From contig CBDAVT010000001.1 in assembly GCA_965201145.1 (NCBI GenBank), positions 70,889 through 134,888 on the forward strand: DNA of 64,000 bases, written 5' to 3'. The notes under the pieces are model-generated. The model worked only from the letters and a program-made list of their open reading frames with translations, searched no databases and had not been told where the DNA came from. Both the position numbers and the translations under genes were made by a program. The first letter of the stretch is position 1. Each line of letters opens with the position of its first letter. The DNA is from Dehalococcoidia bacterium (GTDB lineage Bacteria > Chloroflexota > Dehalococcoidia > Lucifugimonadales > UBA3495). Shown here in pieces: positions 9,045 to 64,000 of the stretch.

Positions 9045-9346
9045 CCCTCCTTCTCTCTCAGGGAGAGGGGCCGAGGGTGAGGGCTGTACTGGGGATAGAC
9101 CCTTCTACTTGTCAGCACCTTCCTTCGCAAGGTAGGAAACTGGCGGCCAGCACCCCAACCATCCCAACATCCCCCCGCTCCCCCAGGGAGAGGGGCCGGG
9201 GGTGAGGGCCAGCGGGCGACTCAACAACCATCCCAATACCTCCCCGCTCCCCCAGGGAGAGGGGCCGGGGGTGAGGGCCAGCGGGCGACTCAACAACCAT
9301 CCCAATACCTCCCCGCTCCCCCAGGGAGAGGGGCCGGGGGTGAGGG
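9045..9346 (+). repeat. array of four REP-like elements, including a 69-bp tandem repeat
   Basis: Cores end at 9083, 9208, 9277 and 9346. The 69-bp unit CCAGCGGGCGACTCAACAACCATCCCAATACC...GGTGAGGG is repeated from about 9209. The array lies between convergent genes. Confidence 0.85.
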
Positions 9347-9367
9347 CCAGCGGCCGGGCAAAAAAAT

Positions 9368-9435: not shown

Positions 9436-11697
9436 TCAACCGGAGTTGTCCAGGGTAAATGTGAACTCGTCGCTGGCCTCCCCGCCGTACTGGTCGGTGG
9501 CGGTGATTTCGACGGTCAGCTCCTGGGAGGCTGCCGGGCCGCCAGTCAAGGTCAGGACGCTGCCATTCCACTCACCGGACACCTTGTTGCGGGCCACCGT
9601 GTTGATGAGCCCGCTCTTGACCACCCCGGTAATCTGGTGCGTCGTCGTCACCATCACCTCATAAGTCAGACCGTCGCCGCTGAAATGGGCCGCCATATCC
9701 AGGTTGACGGTCTCACCTCCCGACAGTTCAACATCGTCGAAGTCGCTGATCAGCTCCGCCGGGTTCTGCGGCGTCGGCTCCGGGGTGGGTTCCGGGGTCG
9801 GGGTCGGCGTCGCCGTCGGTTCCGGCGTCGGCATTAGCGTAGGCACTGGTGTTGGTTCCGGCGTCGGTGTGGACGTCGGTTCCGGGGTTGGCGTAATGGT
9901 CGGCTCCGGCGTCGGCATTAGCGTAGGCACTGGTGTTGGTTCCGGCGTCGGCTCCGGGGTGGGTTCCGGCGTCGCCGTCGGCTCCGGCGTCGGTGTGGAC
10001 GTCGGTTCCGGGGTTGGCGTAGTGGTCGGCGTCGGTGTGGACGTCGGCTCCGGCGTCGCCGTCGGCTCCGGTGTTGGTACGGTTGTAGGTTCCGGCGTCG
10101 CCGTTGGCGTCGCCGTCGGCTCTGGCGTTGGTACGGTTGTAGGTTCCGGCGTCGCCGTTGGCGCGGTCGTCGGGGCCGGCGTTGGCGTGCTGGTGGGACC
10201 CGGCTTTGGCGTTGGCGGCGGCAGAGGCGCGGCAACCAGCGTCAGCAGGAAGGAGTCGCTGACCAGGCTCCCGGATTCGTCGGTGGCGATAATCTTCAGA
10301 GTCAGTTCCTGCAACGGAGCCGGCCCTCCCTTAAGGGTCAACGTCGCGTCATTCCAGGAACCCGTTACCTTGTTGGTAGCTATCGTATTGAGCGCGTCGG
10401 TCTTCACCTCTCCGGTTCGCTGGTGCGTCGTCGTTACTATCGCCTTGTAGGTCAGCCCGTCGCCGCTGAAATGCTCCGTCATATCCAGTTCGATAGTTTC
10501 GCCGTCATAGAGCTCAATATCGTCAAACTCGGCGATGAGTTTCAGGGTAGGCGCCTGAGGCGTGCCGACGATGGTGTTGGACCAGTCGCCGCCGGGCTGC
10601 CCCGCCGCCAGCATACGCACCCGGAAGGAGTAGGCCATGCCGTTGGTCAACCCATCAATGGAAGTTTCCATGCTTTGCACGGTCTGCGAACCGCCGTCAG
10701 CCCAGGTCTCACCTTCCACCGTGTACCCCACTTCGTAAACCGTTGGAGGCGCCGGCGCAGGAGCCGTTGGAGCCGGCGCATTATTACTGCTGGCGAAGCT
10801 ACGAATGTTGGCGGCCGCACTCTTCAGGGACACCAGGCTCTTGAGGGAAGCGCCCTCGCCCTCGGCTCCGCTCTCTTCAGGCGCTTCCCAGGACAGCGTA
10901 ACCTTGCCGTTGCCCGGAGCAATACCCAGCCCGGTAGGGGGCGCGCCGAAGCCGACCAGATTTGGGGAAACCGTATTAGAGCTGGCAGCCCAGTAATCCG
11001 TCCCGTCGCAGCGCGCGCCGACTTCCACGTCATAGGCGGCGCCGCTGGTCAACCCATCGATTGTGTGCGGGGAAGTGGCAGCGTCGATTGTCGTCCACGA
11101 GGACGAGCCGGATTCCCGGTAGCGCACCTTATGCTGCGCCGCGCCGCCGACATCGGTCCAGGTGACCGTCAGCTCGCCCGCATTCGAGCCCGTCGCCACG
11201 GACACGCCGGTAGGCTGCGCCGACTTGCCGGTCGTTCCCTCGATGAAGTTGGAGTACCCGGTCAAATTCTTGCCGCCAACCGAAGAGATGCCGCCAAGGA
11301 TGATGAGATACTTCGTGTTAGGCGCCAGATTTGTCATGTCGTCCGGGCTGGTAGGCGAGAAATTTTGCCCGGTCTCAATCAAGCCCAGTTCGTCGATCAC
11401 GTGTGCACTAATATCGGTCAGGGTCTTGCCCGCAGGATTTGTCCAGCTGACTTCGAAACCGCACGCGTAGGTGTTTGCGATCTGGATACTCTCCGGGCCT
11501 GGGGCCGGGGTGATCAAATGGCTCGCCGCCCACACGTAATACTGGCTGCCGTCTGCTGCGGTCAAGCTTGCCGAACCGATCTGCACCTGGTAGTTGGTTC
11601 CATTGATCAAGCCGGTCGCCCGGTAGTTGTCGATACTCGACGTGGTCACAATTGTCCAGGCGCCGTCTTTCGCAGTGGTGTCTATACGGTAGCGCAC
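9436..11697 (-). CDS. giant FN3-repeat surface protein, C-terminal part (frame-shifted continuation of 11682..13916)
   Basis: The 753-aa ORF holds FN3 repeats (Y.VRYR...W...T), an Ig/cadherin-like domain, a ~155-aa PT(E) linker and a second Ig-like domain. Upstream of the annotated start the frame still reads [19 protein letters not shown], which is the middle of an FN3 repeat. Confidence 0.85.
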
Positions 11698-13916
11698 TGC
11701 GCTTTCAGCGAAGCCCTTGCCGGGGGTCCAGCGCGCATTGAACCGCCGTCGGTGTGGAAGAGAATCACATCCGTCGGCTTCCCGAAGGGCTTGCCGTCCA
11801 CTGGTCCCTCGATCTTTGGAGACTGCCGCCCGGCGACGGAGTACACCCGCACCTCGTAATCGATGCCGTTTTCCAGATTATTGATGTACAGGTCGATTTC
11901 CGGGCTGATTTCGTATGTGATCCACTCCTGCGTGTTCTTCTTTCGATACTGAACCGTGCTGCGCAGGGTCCCGCTGCCGTGTTTGTAACTGACGTACAGA
12001 CGGCCATCGCGGGGCTCGACGATTAGGCCCGTCGGCGCATTGAAGGGCGTCACCAAAATCTTGTCGGGCGTCCAGTGCGTTTCTATCGGCGGGCCGTTGT
12101 ACACTGCGGCGACATCGATCCAGTACGTCGTTCCGTTGGTCAGACCGGTGATCGTATAGGTCTGCTCAGTCCCGGCAGCCGGGGCGACCGTCGCTGTACG
12201 AGGGGTGTTGGTGGGGGCGCTCTCGTGATTCCACCAGCGCACCGTGTAGGAGTTCACCGTATCCGTGCTCTCCGGACTCTGCCATTTCAGCACAATTTCG
12301 GCATCTCCCGACACGCCGCGCAGGTTTCGGGGAGATTTTGCCGTGGCTGCCGATACCGTAATAACCTCGGAGCCGCGGTGATAATCAGCCGGCGGCTCTG
12401 AGTCGGCATCTCTGAACAGAGCAAACACCCGAACTTCATGGTTCTCGTTGGGCAGCAAATCACCTATTTCGAACATCAATCGATCGGCATTGCCGGCAAC
12501 CGGCTTCGCTTCTGTGCCCACTGACGTCCATGGCTCTGGGTTGTCCGGGTCATCCGCTATCTCTCGAATGATCAATTTGTAGCCATCGGCGTCATCTACC
12601 TTGTCCCAGGACACCGTAAGGTCTGCCGTCTCAGCGTCCGAAGTGGCTGCGATCAGCGACGCTGTGATTTCGGTAGGAGCCGGCGCGACCTGGAAATCAG
12701 GGCCATCGACCCAGCGCGTCGTCCCAGCGCGGACAGCGCCTACCTGCAGTTCATATTCATCGAGTACCGACAGCCCTTCCAGCTCATACGGGGTCGATCC
12801 GTAAGCTTGCCGCCATGCGCCGTTCGAGGACTTCAGGCGATACCTGATTGTATGGCTTGTGACGCCATCGCCTTTAGTCCAGCGCACGGTCAACTTGCCG
12901 TTGTCGGCTTGTGTTGTTATGTCCTCGAGCTGCACATTCGCGGGCTTCCCCAGCGGCGTCCCGATACGCGGACTTGTCCACAGGATTTCGCCGTTGAGCA
13001 TAGCGCCGACTTGTACCTGATACGTGGTGCCGTTGCTCAAACCTTCGATGTAGTGCCGCCGGCTGACGTCTTCGATTCTGATGTTTTCAAAGATTCCCCC
13101 CAGAGGGCGGTATTCGAGGACGTGGGACACCAATTCACCGGGCGCATTGGTCCAATAGACCTTCAATTTGCGGTCGGCGGAGACCACATCAAGGCCGCTC
13201 GGCGGCTCGAAGGGTATCGCTTCTATCTGCTCGGACCAGTGGGTCATTGCCGGGGTGGGCGGCGACGCGCTCGTATCTTCGTCGAACACCGCGCCCACCT
13301 GCACGGCATGAGTAAGGTGATTGTCCAGGACGGACAGCGTGTCGCGGCTGCTCATCGCCTGGCCCTCCGCATTGGGCTTCCACTCAAAGGGATTTTCCGG
13401 CGCCGACTGGCGGTACCGCACCACATACGAATCGGCGTTGGTCACGGCGGTCCAGCTCACCCGCAGGCTGCCGGAGCTGTTGGGAGTAACGGTGACGCCG
13501 GTGGGAGCATTAGGCGAAAGGGGAGTGGCATAGGTCGTCCCCACAATCTCCCCGCCATTCACAAAGGCACGGACCGTTATCTTGTACGTCCGTCCGTTGA
13601 CGAGAGAGGAAATAGTATGTGGCATCGTGAGGGTATCCACCGGGTTTTCCGGGAGATGGGTGACCGAGCCGTCTATCGTATCGGTATAGGTGATGCCGTA
13701 GCGGGTTTCGCTGGTCCCTTTCGGCCAGCTCCAGTTTACTTCGAGGGCAGTATCACCCGGGGTAGCGGTGACCGCGGACTGCTCCTGGGGGTGCGCCTGC
13801 CGGGACCAGGAAAGGAGCACCGTCTCCAGATGCCCGGCCAACAGCGCCGTAGGCACCATCGCAGTTGCCAGAACCGCCAGGATCAACCAGGAACGCAGCC
13901 TGTTTCTCATATCCAA
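11682..13916 (-). CDS. giant FN3-repeat surface protein, N-terminal part with signal peptide
   Basis: 744-aa ORF with GGAGG 9 nt upstream of the ATG and an N-terminal signal/TM segment. It carries at least 7 FN3-like repeats. It ends in out-of-frame sequence after a 1-nt loss in a T-run near 11741. Confidence 0.85.
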
Positions 13917-13953
13917 TATCCTCCCCAGTTACACACACGGGGGGGGGGGGGGG

Positions 13954-14136
13954 CAGGGCTATCGCATATGAAAAATTTTCAGGATGAGAACGGAACTTTC
14001 CGATGTTTTGGCGGCGCTTTACTGGGTAATCAACATCAAAACCAACGGTTTAAGTCTTAAATTACCCAAATTTAGCAGTTAAAAACGGAGATTTAACCGT
14101 CAATTGGCCTCTTAAAATCCATATGCGATAGCCCTG
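13954..14136 (-). mobile_element. 183-bp MITE, copy 1 (inverted orientation), flanked by G15/G17 tracts
   Basis: Termini are CAGGGCTATCGCATATG ... CATATGCGATAGCCCTG. It is near-identical to the other copies and has an AT-rich interior. Confidence 0.9.
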
Positions 14137-14500
14137 GGGGGGGGGGGGGGGGGACTAACTGCCTTTGGCAAACCCTTAATCCGGCGCTGCCGCAATTCCG
14201 ATTGAGACATTGACAAACTGGCAGTTAACCCCAACCTTTGGGGCCCCCACCTCCACCGGTGCGATATATACGAGGCCGGGTTTCGCCGGGTACAGTACAC
14301 CCCGGAAACCCGGAGGAAGAACAAGGCGGCTAATTGAAGGTTCGGGCTGCTCATTCGCAGGCCCGCCCGGTAAAAGCGCAGGCTGTTCATTACCCGGTAA
14401 GGCCCGAGGCAAGCTGAACCGCCCACAAGTTGAAATGTGTCAAGCTCATATATTTGAGACCATTATATATTCTCGATGAGCGTTAACCTGCCCGGTAATA

Positions 14501-15738: not shown

Positions 15739-15921
15739 CAGGGCTATCGCATATGGATTTTAAGAGGCCAATTGACGGGTAAATCTCCGTTTTTAACTGC
15801 TAAATTTGGGTAATTTAAGACTTAAACCGTTGGTTTTGATGTTGATTACCCAGTAAAGCGCCGCCAAAACATCGGAAAGTTCCGTTCTGATCCTGAAATT
15901 TTTTCATATGCGATAGCCCTG
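15739..15921 (+). mobile_element. 183-bp MITE, copy 2
   Basis: Perfect 17-bp TIRs, flanked by the 10-bp direct repeat ACCCCCCTAG (15729-15738 and 15922-15931). Confidence 0.93.
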
Positions 15922-50405: not shown

Positions 50406-50678
50406 CCCTCACCCCCGGCCCCTCTCCCTGGGGGAGAGGAGAGAGCTTGTTCCTGGGCGTGTTCGCGCATAGTCAGAAATTACATCCTCTGAAAAAGCGG
50501 GAATAGTCAGCGGCTTTCCTCTCCCAAGCAACGTGAAGAAACTACTCTCCCCTCTCCTCGCGGGAGAGGGGCTAGGGGTGAGGACTTCCCAGCACATAGG
50601 TCAGGATTCACCCTCCCCCAAGCAACGTGAAGAAACTACTCTCCCCTCTCCTCGCGGGAGAGGGGCCGGGGGTGAGGG
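50406..50678. repeat. cluster of three REP-like elements (one inverted) with a ~100-bp tandem duplication
   Basis: Cores lie at 50406-50440 (reverse), 50549-50583 and 50643-50678. The unit ...CAAGCAACGTGAAGAAACTACTCTCCCCTCTCCTCGCGGGAGAGGGGC... is duplicated. Confidence 0.85.
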
Positions 50679-50719
50679 CTTCCCCGACACATACTTGACC
50701 GCAGGGGGATAGAAAAGGT

Positions 50720-60752: not shown

Positions 60753-61523
60753 TCAGTCCACCAAACGATCTATTCTCTGAATTGATAGCGCCTTGCCGGT
60801 GTCAACGTCCACCTCTACCAGGACGGAGTTGAGCATCACCGGCCCCCGGGCTACCGAGAGACGCTGGGGCAGCCCGGTCAAGAACCTTTCCAGCACGGCG
60901 TTGGTATCGCTGCCGATTACCGAGTTCACCGGCCCGGTCATGCCAACGTCGGTCAAGTAGGCCGTGCCTTTGGGCAGAATCCGGGCATCTACCGTGCCAA
61001 CGTGGGTGTGGGTTCCCAGGACGGCGCCAACCTTGCCGTCCAGATACCAACCCAACCCCTGCTTTTCCGAAGTCGCCTCAGCGTGGAAGTCCACGAGTAT
61101 GACCCGGGGAGCATACTCGGCGATTGCCTCCGCCAGGAGGACGCTGGCGGTGCGAAAGGGGCAGTCCAGCGTAGGCATAAACACTCGACCCATCAAGTTA
61201 AGCACCATTACGCCGTCCTGAACCAGATACCCGCGCCCCGGCGCATCCGGGTAATTGGCCGGCCGGATTAGCGGCAGTCCCTCATCCATGTGGGGGATAA
61301 TATCCTTCTGATCCCAGATGTGATTGCCTGAGGTCAGAATGTCCACCCCGCTCTCCAGCAGTTCTTCTGCGGTTTCCAGCGTGATACCAAAACCGCCGGC
61401 CACATTCTCGCCATTGGCCACTACCAGATCGACACCCAGTTCCTCCCGCAGGTCGGGCAGTACCCGGCGTATCGCCTGCCGGCCGGGCTGACCGATAATG
61501 TCTCCGATCATCAAGATTCGCAA
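60753..61523 (-). CDS. ymdB: YmdB-type (TIGR00282) metallophosphoesterase
   Basis: MRILMIGDIIGQPG and VVANGENVAGGFG. It uses a TTG start and sits next to rny, the conserved pairing. Confidence 0.9.
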   Translation of the reverse strand: MRILMIGDIIGQPGRQAIRRVLPDLREELGVDLVVANGENVAGGFGITLETAEELLESGVDILTSGNHIWDQKDIIPHMDEGLPLIRPANYPDAPGRGYLVQDGVMVLNLMGRVFMPTLDCPFRTASVLLAEAIAEYAPRVILVDFHAEATSEKQGLGWYLDGKVGAVLGTHTHVGTVDARILPKGTAYLTDVGMTGPVNSVIGSDTNAVLERFLTGLPQRLSVARGPVMLNSVLVEVDVDTGKALSIQRIDRLVD

Positions 61524-61542
61524 GCTAACTTCCTTCCGGCCA

Positions 61543-61725
61543 CAGGGCTATCGCATATGGATTTTAAGAGGCCAATTGACGGGTAAATCTCCGTTTTTAA
61601 CTGCTAAATTTGGGTAATTTAAGACTTAAACCGTTGGTTTTGATGTTGATTACCCAGTAAAGCGCCGCCAAAACATCGGAAAGTTCCGTTTTGATCCTGA
61701 AAATTTTTCATATGCGATAGCCCTG
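61543..61725 (+). mobile_element. 183-bp MITE, copy 3
   Basis: Perfect TIRs, flanked by the 10-bp direct repeat CTTCCGGCCA (61533-61542 and 61726-61735). It lies 19 nt upstream of the ymdB start. Confidence 0.93.
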
Positions 61726-61935
61726 CTTCCGGCCAACACCGTCGGGGCATTGGCGTCTGAGTAACCGCGCGGGAGGCTTTCATTCCCGTCCCACTGCGCC
61801 CTTGGGCTGCCGCCAAAGCAAGGAAAGCAACAGGCCCAAGCGCCCAATTACCGGCGCTCAGGCCCGACATCTGCGAAAATTCCGGCAAATCGAATATTGG
61901 CAAGTCGCGAAATGCCGATTCCAGCGGCAGCGCCA

Positions 61936-63468
61936 CTAACGGGCGATTTCCACATTCCGGGTTTCCCGTATCACCGTAACCTTAATCTGTCCCGGGAAAA
62001 CCAGGTCTTCTTCCACTTTGCGGGCAATGTCCCGCGCCAGCGAGGCCGAAGCAATATCGTCAATATCCGTGGGGTTTACCATGACTCTTACTTCGCGCCC
62101 GGCCTGAATTGCGAAAGCCCGGTCCACACCCCCAAATCCGATGGCAGTATCTTCCAGTTCCCTCAGGCGCTTAACGTACTGGCCCAGGGACTCCTTACGC
62201 GCCCCGGGACGGGCGGCGCTGATCGCATCGGCGCTGGCGACAATGAATGACTCGATAGTCGAGTGTTCATCGTCGTGATGTTCCAGGATCGACAAGTAGG
62301 AGTTATGGTTAATTCCGTACTTTTTCGCCAGCTCGGCGCCAATTTCGGCGTGAGGCCCGGCGACTTCGTGGGTCAGGGCTTTCCCCAAGTCGTGGAGCAG
62401 CCCACCTATCTTGGCTACCTGAACGTTGGCGCCGATTTCGGCGGCCAGCATTCCGGACAGCAGGCAAACCTCGATCGAGTGCTTCAGGACATTTTCGCCG
62501 TAGCTGTAACGGTACTTCAACTGACCCAGCAGCCGGATCAGCTCCGGGTCGATACCGCTTAACCCGACATCGAAGGTAGATTGTTCACCGGCTTTCCAAA
62601 TGGTTTGCTCGATGTCCACCTGGGCCCGGTTTACCGTATCTTCAATACGGGCCGGCTGGATGCGGCCGTCGCTGACCAGCCTTTCCAGAGCTAATCGGGC
62701 CACTTCGCGCCTTACCGGGTCAAAGCAGGACAAAGTTACAATCTCCGGAGTATCGTCGATGACGATTTCCACTCCGGTCATGGCTTCCAGGGCTCTTATA
62801 TTCCGCCCTTCGCGGCCGATGAGACGTCCTTTCATCTCATCATTTGGCAGGGATACGATGGAAGTGGTAGTTTCCGACACTACGTCGGTTGCCAGACGGT
62901 TAATCGCCAGAGTGATTATGCGGCGGGCGTTCTCCTCGGCAGTCAGCTTGTATTCGCGCTCCAGGTCATAGGTACGGCGAGCGAGTTCATGCCTGGCTTT
63001 TTCCTCGCCTTCTTTTACTACCAGCTCTCTGGCATCTTCCACCGATAACCCGGCGGTTTCTTCCAGAGCCTTAACCTGCTGCTTCTTTAGCTCCTTCGCT
63101 TCCTCATAAGCTAGATCTACCTGGGATTCCTTTTCAGTAAGAGATGTCCGCTGCTTTTCCAGGGCTTCACTCTTACGTTCTAACTGCTCTTCCCGCTGTA
63201 GATAACGTCGCTCCAGGCGAGTAAGTTCCTGCCGTTGTTCCTTGATTTCCTGCTCGCCGGAAGTGCGCAACTTCAGCACTTCTTCCTGGGTTTCCAGAAG
63301 AATTCTCCGCCTTTCATCCTCCGCCTGCGCTACAACCGTACTGGCTTCTTCTTTAGCGCTTTCTACCCGCTTACCATCGACTCGGGAACGATAGACCAGC
63401 CACGAAGCGGCCCCGGTCCCGATTGTCCCTGCAACCGCCAGGACGGCAAGGAAAATTGTCAATTCCAT
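61936..63468 (-). CDS. rny: ribonuclease Y
   Basis: N-terminal TM, coiled coil, KH domain (GREGRNIRALE) and HD domain (LLHDLGKA). I chose the start at ATG 63468, after AAGGGAG. Confidence 0.93.
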   Translation of the reverse strand: MELTIFLAVLAVAGTIGTGAASWLVYRSRVDGKRVESAKEEASTVVAQAEDERRRILLETQEEVLKLRTSGEQEIKEQRQELTRLERRYLQREEQLERKSEALEKQRTSLTEKESQVDLAYEEAKELKKQQVKALEETAGLSVEDARELVVKEGEEKARHELARRTYDLEREYKLTAEENARRIITLAINRLATDVVSETTTSIVSLPNDEMKGRLIGREGRNIRALEAMTGVEIVIDDTPEIVTLSCFDPVRREVARLALERLVSDGRIQPARIEDTVNRAQVDIEQTIWKAGEQSTFDVGLSGIDPELIRLLGQLKYRYSYGENVLKHSIEVCLLSGMLAAEIGANVQVAKIGGLLHDLGKALTHEVAGPHAEIGAELAKKYGINHNSYLSILEHHDDEHSTIESFIVASADAISAARPGARKESLGQYVKRLRELEDTAIGFGGVDRAFAIQAGREVRVMVNPTDIDDIASASLARDIARKVEEDLVFPGQIKVTVIRETRNVEIAR

Positions 63469-63786
63469 TGAATCTCCCTTCCCTATTCCGTCTCGGCTCT
63501 GCAACAAGAGTTAAATCCTCGCTTGATTATCCTAACTAATAGATGTTAATAGTGTCAAGGAAGGGCATATCCGGGTATTCTTAATCTGAGGTGGAAATAG
63601 CTATATAAGGGGTGCGGTGAAATGGAATGAGGGGCTGCCTTCGGTGTGGCGAGGACGGCGGCGGCTGATGCGTCGGACCAGGGGATACATCAGGAAGGGG
63701 GAAATGCCGGCGTACCCCCTGGCCCTGCTATGCTGCCAGGGATGGCCCAAAACTTAATATCAACCAACATTAACAATACCCTGCGG

Positions 63787-63969
63787 CAGGGCTATCGCAT
63801 ATGGATTTTAAGAGGCCAATTGACGGGTAAATCTCAGTTTTTAACTGCTAAATTTGGGTAATTTAAGACTTAAACCGTTGGTTTTGATGTTGATTACCCA
63901 GTAAAGCGCCGCCAAAACATCGGAAAGTTCCGTTTTGATCCTGAAAATTTTTCATATGCGATAGCCCTG
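63787..63969 (+). mobile_element. 183-bp MITE, copy 4
   Basis: Perfect TIRs, flanked by the 10-bp direct repeat TACCCTGCGG (63777-63786 and 63970-63979). Confidence 0.93.
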
Positions 63970-63979
63970 TACCCTGCGG

Positions 63980-64000
63980 CAGGGCTATCGCATATGGAAT
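63980..64000 (+). mobile_element. 183-bp MITE, copy 5 (truncated by window end)
   Basis: CAGGGCTATCGCATATGGAAT begins immediately after the right-hand TACCCTGCGG of copy 4. Confidence 0.8.

Follow-up and report, generated by a model that had tools for sequence, protein, structure and literature searches.

A MITE and its parent ISAs1-family IS probably home to promoters in a Dehalococcoidia genome, the rny-ymdB copy through a promoter-like gene start

Our analyses of a Dehalococcoidia genome indicate that the 183-nt MITE found between rny and ymdB in the window (the whole 64,000-nt stretch of DNA considered here) belongs to a family of elements, both MITE and IS, that insert where their transposase homes to promoters, and that the ymdB copy reached its site through a promoter-like decoy at the beginning of the gene. 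We consider this the best explanation of the data and assign it a probability of roughly 0.8. The evidence comprises ~160 sites that could be scored in a single genome, together with a dose-response to both promoter boxes and an offset shared by several phyla. A transposase that targets promoters would account for the accumulation of copies in 5' regions, for their rarity in convergent regions and for the stacking of several copies at one promoter. The preliminary description of this DNA had proposed that the elements either favour promoter-like DNA as a target or are selected for their regulatory effects; the first proposal is borne out by -35 hexamers lying 9 nt from the edge of the target duplication and 19 nt from the element tip.

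The 3.09 Mb assembly (3 contigs) contains 184 copies of the MITE, each of 183 nt and with 97-100% identity, together with 22 full copies of a parent IS of 1207 bp that has the same ends as the MITE. The two elements occupy 177 distinct sites genome-wide. The MITE is non-coding (40% GC in the ymdB copy) and bounded by inverted ends, CAGGGCTATCGCATATG, that match perfectly over 17 nt; the ymdB copy is overlapped by a single ORF (61619-61936, 105 aa), which extends into the flank. The parent IS shows the same perfect 17-nt ends and a single ORF of 375 aa, whose product matches NF033564 (ISAs1 family) with E = 2.4e-116 and 388 bits against a cutoff of 70, as well as both Pfam DDE_Tnp_1_assoc and DDE_Tnp_1. 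The ends of MITE and IS match over 21-24 nt and their interiors are unrelated; because nothing beyond these 21-24 nt per end is common to both, the 183-nt element is a MITE of the 1207-bp IS. Duplications of 8-11 bp are present in 168 of the 184 MITE copies (10 bp in 148 copies, 9 bp in 16), and those of the IS measure 9-10 bp where the flanks are intact. Because MITE and IS have their ends and their target rule in common and also form mixed arrays, we infer that the transposase of the parent IS would mobilise the MITEs in trans via the common 17-24-nt ends. Most MITE copies differ from the consensus by 1-3 mismatches (a single one in the ymdB copy), a near-identity that suggests amplification in a recent burst, not prolonged retention. 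The MITE was absent from the 40 relatives searched, and an exact-match scan of JGI metagenome contigs for the MITE end gave no match.

Several other features of these elements deserve mention. A subterminal motif, AATTG(AC)GGGTAA, is common to the MITE (positions 30-50) and the IS (27-45), just inside the terminal repeat, and could be a second transposase-binding site. A further 1207-bp IS copy (C2 2134697-2136096) is split by a MITE at IS position 416, inside the transposase gene, where no promoter-like sequence occurs at the offset described below. Matching duplications are missing in 13 of the 22 full-length IS copies, for example C2 1026565-1027771, 1181717-1182923 and 2412179-2413385 and C1 500118-501324, several of which share swapped flanks (GACCCACCCT, GCCCAATATA/TATATTGGGC, GAGGGGAGGG). 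These swapped flanks are what recombination between IS copies, with inversions or other rearrangements, would leave behind; joins made through repeats during assembly could look alike.

The observation that the copies in the window lie upstream of genes extends to the whole genome. We rebuilt the pre-insertion genome by removing every element together with one duplicate, and called genes with our own simple codon-usage caller (2724 genes, 82.7% coding). Intergenic regions, which make up 17% of the genome, hold 146 of the 177 sites (binomial p = 6e-80), and called coding sequence holds 29. The intergenic spacers between divergent, co-directional and convergent genes contain 60, 82 and 4 sites, respectively, with ~41, 86 and 19 expected by length (chi-square p = 3.7e-5). 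The intergenic excess and the convergent depletion show that the upstream bias is real. Within co-directional spacers no start-codon bias is seen (54% of sites are nearer the start); the bias is toward promoters, not start codons. The promoters at 71 of the 81 high-scoring intergenic sites point toward the start of a gene, the median distance being 112 nt. A tRNA or tmRNA gene lies ahead of nine additional high-scoring sites, which are situated 34-121 nt upstream of it (the genome has 49 such genes); this explains some of the sites that apparently face a 3' end. These nine are located at C2 594682, 815848, 1106990, 1443065, 1446112, 1730583, 1853113, 1903275 and 2390134.

The target rule itself is defined by a fixed offset to the -35. 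In the target logo, GTCAA or TTGAC stands out at a constant distance to one side of the duplication. Of the 159 sites, 59 have a hexamer agreeing with TTGACA in at least 5/6 positions precisely at offset 9; any other offset has 0-10 such sites. When sites are oriented by the -35 only, TAnAAT emerges, unselected, at a 17-nt spacer. Judged by these motifs, the targets are complete sigma-70-type promoters facing away from the element. Scores at the fixed offset were obtained with a sigma-70 matrix of textbook E. coli frequencies, unfitted here and applied under an assumed promoter consensus for the host. Against random intergenic positions, 118 of the 159 sites score above the 95th percentile and 91 above the 99th (Mann-Whitney p = 4e-76). 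The offset of 9 is unchanged for spacers of 16, 17 and 18 nt and, since it holds whatever the spacer length, the ruler is anchored on the -35. Both orientations of the element relative to the promoter occur (45:34, p = 0.26). A good promoter at offset 9 is missing from 26-43% of the sites, window copies 1 and 2 being among them. The 41 low-scoring sites revealed no alternative motif; in several of them TTGACA is one position off, at 8 or 10, or the site lies in poly-G. In mechanistic terms, a staggered cut of 10 bp, sometimes 9, would place the end of the duplication 9 nt before the initial T of the -35. The element tip would then stand ~19 nt from the -35, roughly at -55 from the transcription start, and the core promoter would be left intact, still pointing away from the element.

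How much of the promoter is recognized can be approached through the occupancy of potential targets. Intergenic perfect TTGACA hexamers are occupied in 28 of 167 cases when TAnnnT follows at 16-18 nt and in 6 of 208 when it does not (Fisher p = 3e-6); for intergenic hexamers matching at 5/6, the corresponding figures are 17 of 343 and 7 of 3756 (Fisher p = 7e-14). In a strict context, with the hexamer, the gap, the duplication and 20 further nt all intergenic, occupancy in the best -35 bin goes from 0/205 with the worst -10 to 17/106 with the best. Logistic coefficients per bit are 0.46 for the -35 and 0.31 for the -10, the rise with -10 score being nearly as steep as that with -35 score. These figures bear on an alternative that we regard as unlikely, namely that the transposase itself reads the TTGACA hexamer, with no participation of RNA polymerase, and that the association with the -10 and with gene starts is secondary. 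Such a mode would fit the hexamer at its rigid 9-nt offset being the strongest single signal, a ruler that follows the -35 and not the -10, the existence of occupied hexamers that are intragenic or devoid of a -10, and the position of the ymdB decoy inside a gene. However, it does not predict that hexamers of equal quality, whether the best -35s or those matching at 5/6, are occupied according to the -10 that accompanies them, and purifying selection should not favour working promoters over dead, non-functional hexamers. For these reasons, we favour a transposase that reads promoters bound by RNA polymerase. In the simplest version of this polymerase-dependent targeting, the transposase would contact the holoenzyme bound at the promoter, a step deduced from the -10 dependence only. 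We propose tentatively, at somewhat less than even odds, that the transposases of the ISAs1 clade are physically guided by the promoter-bound holoenzyme, through sigma region 4 or the alpha C-terminal domain. If true, promoter tethering would have evolved in bacteria a second time, independently, and MITE/IS occupancy would amount to a natural in vivo footprint of the polymerase, including intragenic decoys such as the ymdB start.

The same offset recurs in related elements of other genomes. From 80 loci with transposases 50-80% identical to that of the parent IS, we retained the 42 with clean ends and exact 9-10-bp duplications, corresponding to 41 distinct sites, and left out the 38 loci without clean ends plus exact duplication. 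The hosts belong to the Dehalococcoidia, the Alphaproteobacteria and the Acidobacteria, along with one gammaproteobacterium. Matches of at least 5/6 at offset 9 occur in 11 of these 41 sites, and in 0-3 at other offsets (Poisson p = 1e-12). As the offset-9 peak recurs across phyla, the promoter habit is that of the ISAs1 clade and not that of the host.

The insertion between rny and ymdB illustrates how this rule can operate on a gene start. The YmdB-like metallophosphoesterase gene ymdB (60753-61523, minus strand; PF13277, E = 1e-100) has a TTG start with its T at 61523, and rny, coding for ribonuclease Y (61936-63469, minus strand; TIGR03319, E = 7e-189), has a likely ATG at 63469 with GGGAAGGGAG upstream. 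The interval separating them (61524-61935) consists of 219 nt of spacer and a 193-nt insertion. The MITE, copy 3 of the window, occupies 61543-61725 on the plus strand (183 nt, perfect 17-nt inverted ends) between two exact copies of the 10-bp target duplication CTTCCGGCCA, one gene-proximal (61533-61542) and one distal (61726-61735). As first described, the element lies 19 nt from the TTG start of ymdB and the duplication overlaps the Shine-Dalgarno, GGAAGGAAG (61529-61537, minus strand), whose AAGGAAG is conserved in congeners; the overlap amounts to 5 nt and the gene-proximal duplicate leaves GGAAGGAAG intact. Exactly 9 nt from the duplication there is a -35-like hexamer, TTGCGA (61518-61523, minus strand), the TTG of which is the ymdB start codon, and 17 nt past it a -10-like hexamer, CATTAT (61495-61500, minus strand), provided by the ymdB codons Asp-Ile-Ile. 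This combination is a moderate match to the consensus (4/6 + 4/6), with a matrix score of 8.19, higher than the 99th percentile (6.94) for randomly drawn intergenic positions, and the site is canonical. The start codon and codons 9-10 of ymdB would act as a decoy promoter within coding sequence. The MITE would thus lie between rny and ymdB because the first 29 bases of ymdB resemble a promoter, and a decoy at this place would put the element 19 nt from the start codon, on its upstream side, and would leave the Shine-Dalgarno partly duplicated but not destroyed. The 19 nt that separate the element from the ymdB start are the standard 19-nt distance of the family from a -35, in this case a putative one.

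In 15 congeners, rny and ymdB are adjacent, separated by 143-248 nt, and no element is present. The simple co-transcription that the preliminary description took for granted is complicated by a terminator-like hairpin (61831-61866, minus strand; 14 pairs, 10 of them G-C) located ~70 nt past the rny stop. Across 16 genomes of the genus, only this hairpin, followed by a T-run in most relatives, and the Shine-Dalgarno are conserved in the spacer. With a conserved terminator-like hairpin between the genes, rny-ymdB co-transcription in the genus is not a given, and the hairpin may be an attenuator tuning the rny:ymdB expression ratio. A consensus scan of 61300-62100 on either strand detected no promoter-like site, including in the stretch from the hairpin to ymdB and in the element, and Rfam yielded no match in 61300-64000 at E <= 1. 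Any transcript reaching ymdB would carry a leader 193 nt longer and strongly folded; in the predicted fold the Shine-Dalgarno is unpaired. Likewise, an exact-protein look-up for contigs with an identical YmdB protein found none on record, and an exact-match metagenome scan for the empty-site junction at ymdB found none.

It is highly improbable that the copies, that of the rny-ymdB spacer included, have been kept upstream of genes for a regulatory gain, whether by supplying an outward promoter, by acting as an upstream activating element or by providing an RNA processing site. Three features speak for such a function: immediately before the ymdB Shine-Dalgarno the element RNA is predicted to fold into one long hairpin (-88.7 kcal/mol, z = -5), A/T-rich tracts occur at both element ends, and weak, AT-driven promoter-like matches of at most 9.5 bits exist within the element. 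However, even the best matrix matches in the element have poor -35 hexamers, so that the initial remark that it has no convincing outward sigma70 promoter still stands, in line with the scan of 61300-62100 on both strands. In addition, the orientation of the element with respect to the promoter is random, its position is fixed to the -35 and not to start codons, the full-length IS and its relatives in other phyla have the identical offset, and the near-identical copies suggest a recent burst. Selection for regulatory effects, the second proposal of the preliminary description, finds no support in elements that insert in both orientations, leave the core promoter intact and lack a convincing outward promoter. 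As for an essentially random insertion in which the pattern would result from the loss of gene-disrupting copies, the 29 of 177 sites in called coding sequence do indicate that intragenic insertion is possible, but we find this scarcely credible because it can produce neither a TTGACA offset sharp to the single nucleotide nor the convergent depletion (4 observed, ~19 expected) nor repeated insertions at one promoter.

Two of the four sites in the window are canonical, that of the ymdB copy and that of an array starting at 63787. In this array, copy 4 (63787-63969, plus strand) is the first of three copies in the same orientation, copy 5 (63980-64000, plus strand) runs past the window end, and a sixth copy, the third array member, lies just outside. 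Its duplications and spacers end in CCCTGCGG, and its target would be a candidate promoter just beyond the window, TTGCTA-18-TATAGT, on the plus strand with a score of 12.0, behind which comes a plus-strand gene for a circularly permuted ATP-grasp protein. The array does lie ~320 nt upstream of rny, as previously stated, but the promoter that it targets is apparently that of the ATP-grasp gene; a candidate rny promoter, TTGACA-18-TAGGAT (63529-63558, minus strand), has no element. Copy 2 (15739-15921, plus strand; duplication ACCCCCCTAG) is found in a divergent intergenic region and is non-canonical, the closest promoter-like sequence (TTGACC-17-CATAAT, 15688-15660) being at a distance of 40 nt. 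Since copy 2 and the 63787 array occupy divergent regions, they are also upstream of plus-strand genes. The placement of all copies in 5' regions of minus-strand genes thus holds as regards the upstream position, whereas the strand pattern is a local coincidence.

The remaining copy of the window, copy 1 (13954-14136, minus strand), is inserted in a poly-G tract upstream of an FN3-domain gene and is also non-canonical, with no promoter at the 9-nt offset. It is bordered by 14 G (13940-13953) and 17 G (14137-14153). Another MITE within long poly-G exists at C1 418454, and at both sites the cut position is ambiguous and the promoter rule not scorable. The FN3 ORF (11682-13916) encodes 742-744 aa in frame with three fn3 domains according to Pfam. 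The distance of 37 nt originally given between copy 1 and an ATG at 13916 has to be corrected: position 13916 corresponds to the TTG of the longest ORF, and the ATG that has a GGAGG at the proper spacing lies at 13910, 43 nt from the copy. The window contains, moreover, a second short repeat family (9143-9356 and 50518-50684) built on a hairpin-forming unit, CCCCTCTCC...GGGAGAGGGGC.GGGGTGAGG. The same CCCCTCTCC-type repeat adjoins the MITE sites C2 34049, 1460484, 2264506 and 2414170, which have the flank ATTGTCAATCC in common.

Arrays like the one starting at 63787 number 22 genome-wide, the one at C2 302975-303927 having 5 copies. Adjacent MITE-MITE pairs have the same orientation in 18 of 18 cases (p = 8e-6), and single insertions are randomly oriented. 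The spacers within arrays keep their promoter-proximal end and vary at the distal one (8-10 nt). A head-to-head MITE pair would form a long palindrome with arms of ~183 bp and would probably be unstable. The existence of tandem arrays is itself accounted for by the target rule. More generally, the copies of MITE and IS flag likely promoters, those of tRNA genes included, in an uncultured lineage, and they offer a clean system for studying how a DDE transposase recognizes a promoter. They also call for caution, as a MITE beside a start codon can mean that the coding sequence is promoter-like and not that the gene is regulated.

Members of the ISAs1 family, as defined in ISfinder, are ~1.2-1.3 kb long and have one ORF, terminal inverted repeats of 14-22 bp that start from CAGGG and direct repeats of 8-10 bp. 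The parent IS resembles these elements (ISAs1, IS1358, the E. coli H-repeat/YbfD-YdcC type) in its transposase, its length of ~1.2 kb, its CAGGG ends and the length of its duplication. The searchable literature describes no promoter target specificity for the family. In a large survey, ISAs1 elements were over-represented between convergent genes (PMC9208149), in the opposite direction to the depletion of convergent regions observed here.

With the Correia, ERIC, RUP and BOX elements, our MITE shares its short size, its lack of coding capacity, its inverted-repeat boundaries, its many copies, its presumed mobilisation in trans and a frequently intergenic, presumably co-transcribed location. 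Those elements are not known to stand at a fixed distance from a -35. Several of these classical MITE families bring along their own promoters or protein-binding sites, whereas the element described here is apparently devoid of a promoter of its own. A parallel can also be drawn with the yeast Ty3 and Ty1 and the Dictyostelium TRE, which integrate upstream of genes transcribed by RNA polymerase III, their machinery being tethered to the initiation complex. The likeness would be one of outline, a 'safe haven' just upstream of genes (nine of the sites reported here face tRNA or tmRNA genes); these are, by contrast, eukaryotic retroelements with an integrase and polymerase III factors.

The closest counterparts in mode of insertion are the TnGBS integrative conjugative elements, the ISLre2 family and the ISKra4 group, for which Guerillot et al. 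2014 (PMC3942029, citing Brochet et al. 2009) report insertion at a point 15-17 bp upstream from the -35 box of sigma-A promoters; the text of that article contains no mention of ISAs1. Their transposases are all Mutator-like (p-MULT3/4, with a motif between domains N1 and N2), their orientation relative to the promoter is conserved but lost if the inverted repeats are symmetrical, and, by analogy with Ty3, the authors propose a contact with the RNA polymerase initiation complex (PMC3942029). Our elements are similar in that a DDE transposase inserts them a short and constant distance ahead of the -35 and spares the promoter. The absence of a conserved orientation (45:34) agrees with the exception of symmetrical repeats, their ends being near-perfectly complementary. 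They differ in the position of the element tip, here 19 bp instead of 15-17 bp from the -35, in their duplication of 10 bp, in the amplification of a MITE derivative to 184 copies and in the -10 dose-response, which comes from the present data and not from PMC3942029. Above all, their transposase is ISAs1/IS4-like according to Pfam and NCBIfam and unrelated to the Mutator-like enzymes, so that they work like the TnGBS group without being members of it. Published cases of promoter homing in bacteria concern a single group of transposases, the Mutator-like ones of TnGBS, ISLre2 and ISKra4, and promoter homing by ISAs1 elements suggests convergent evolution of the same 'safe haven' strategy.
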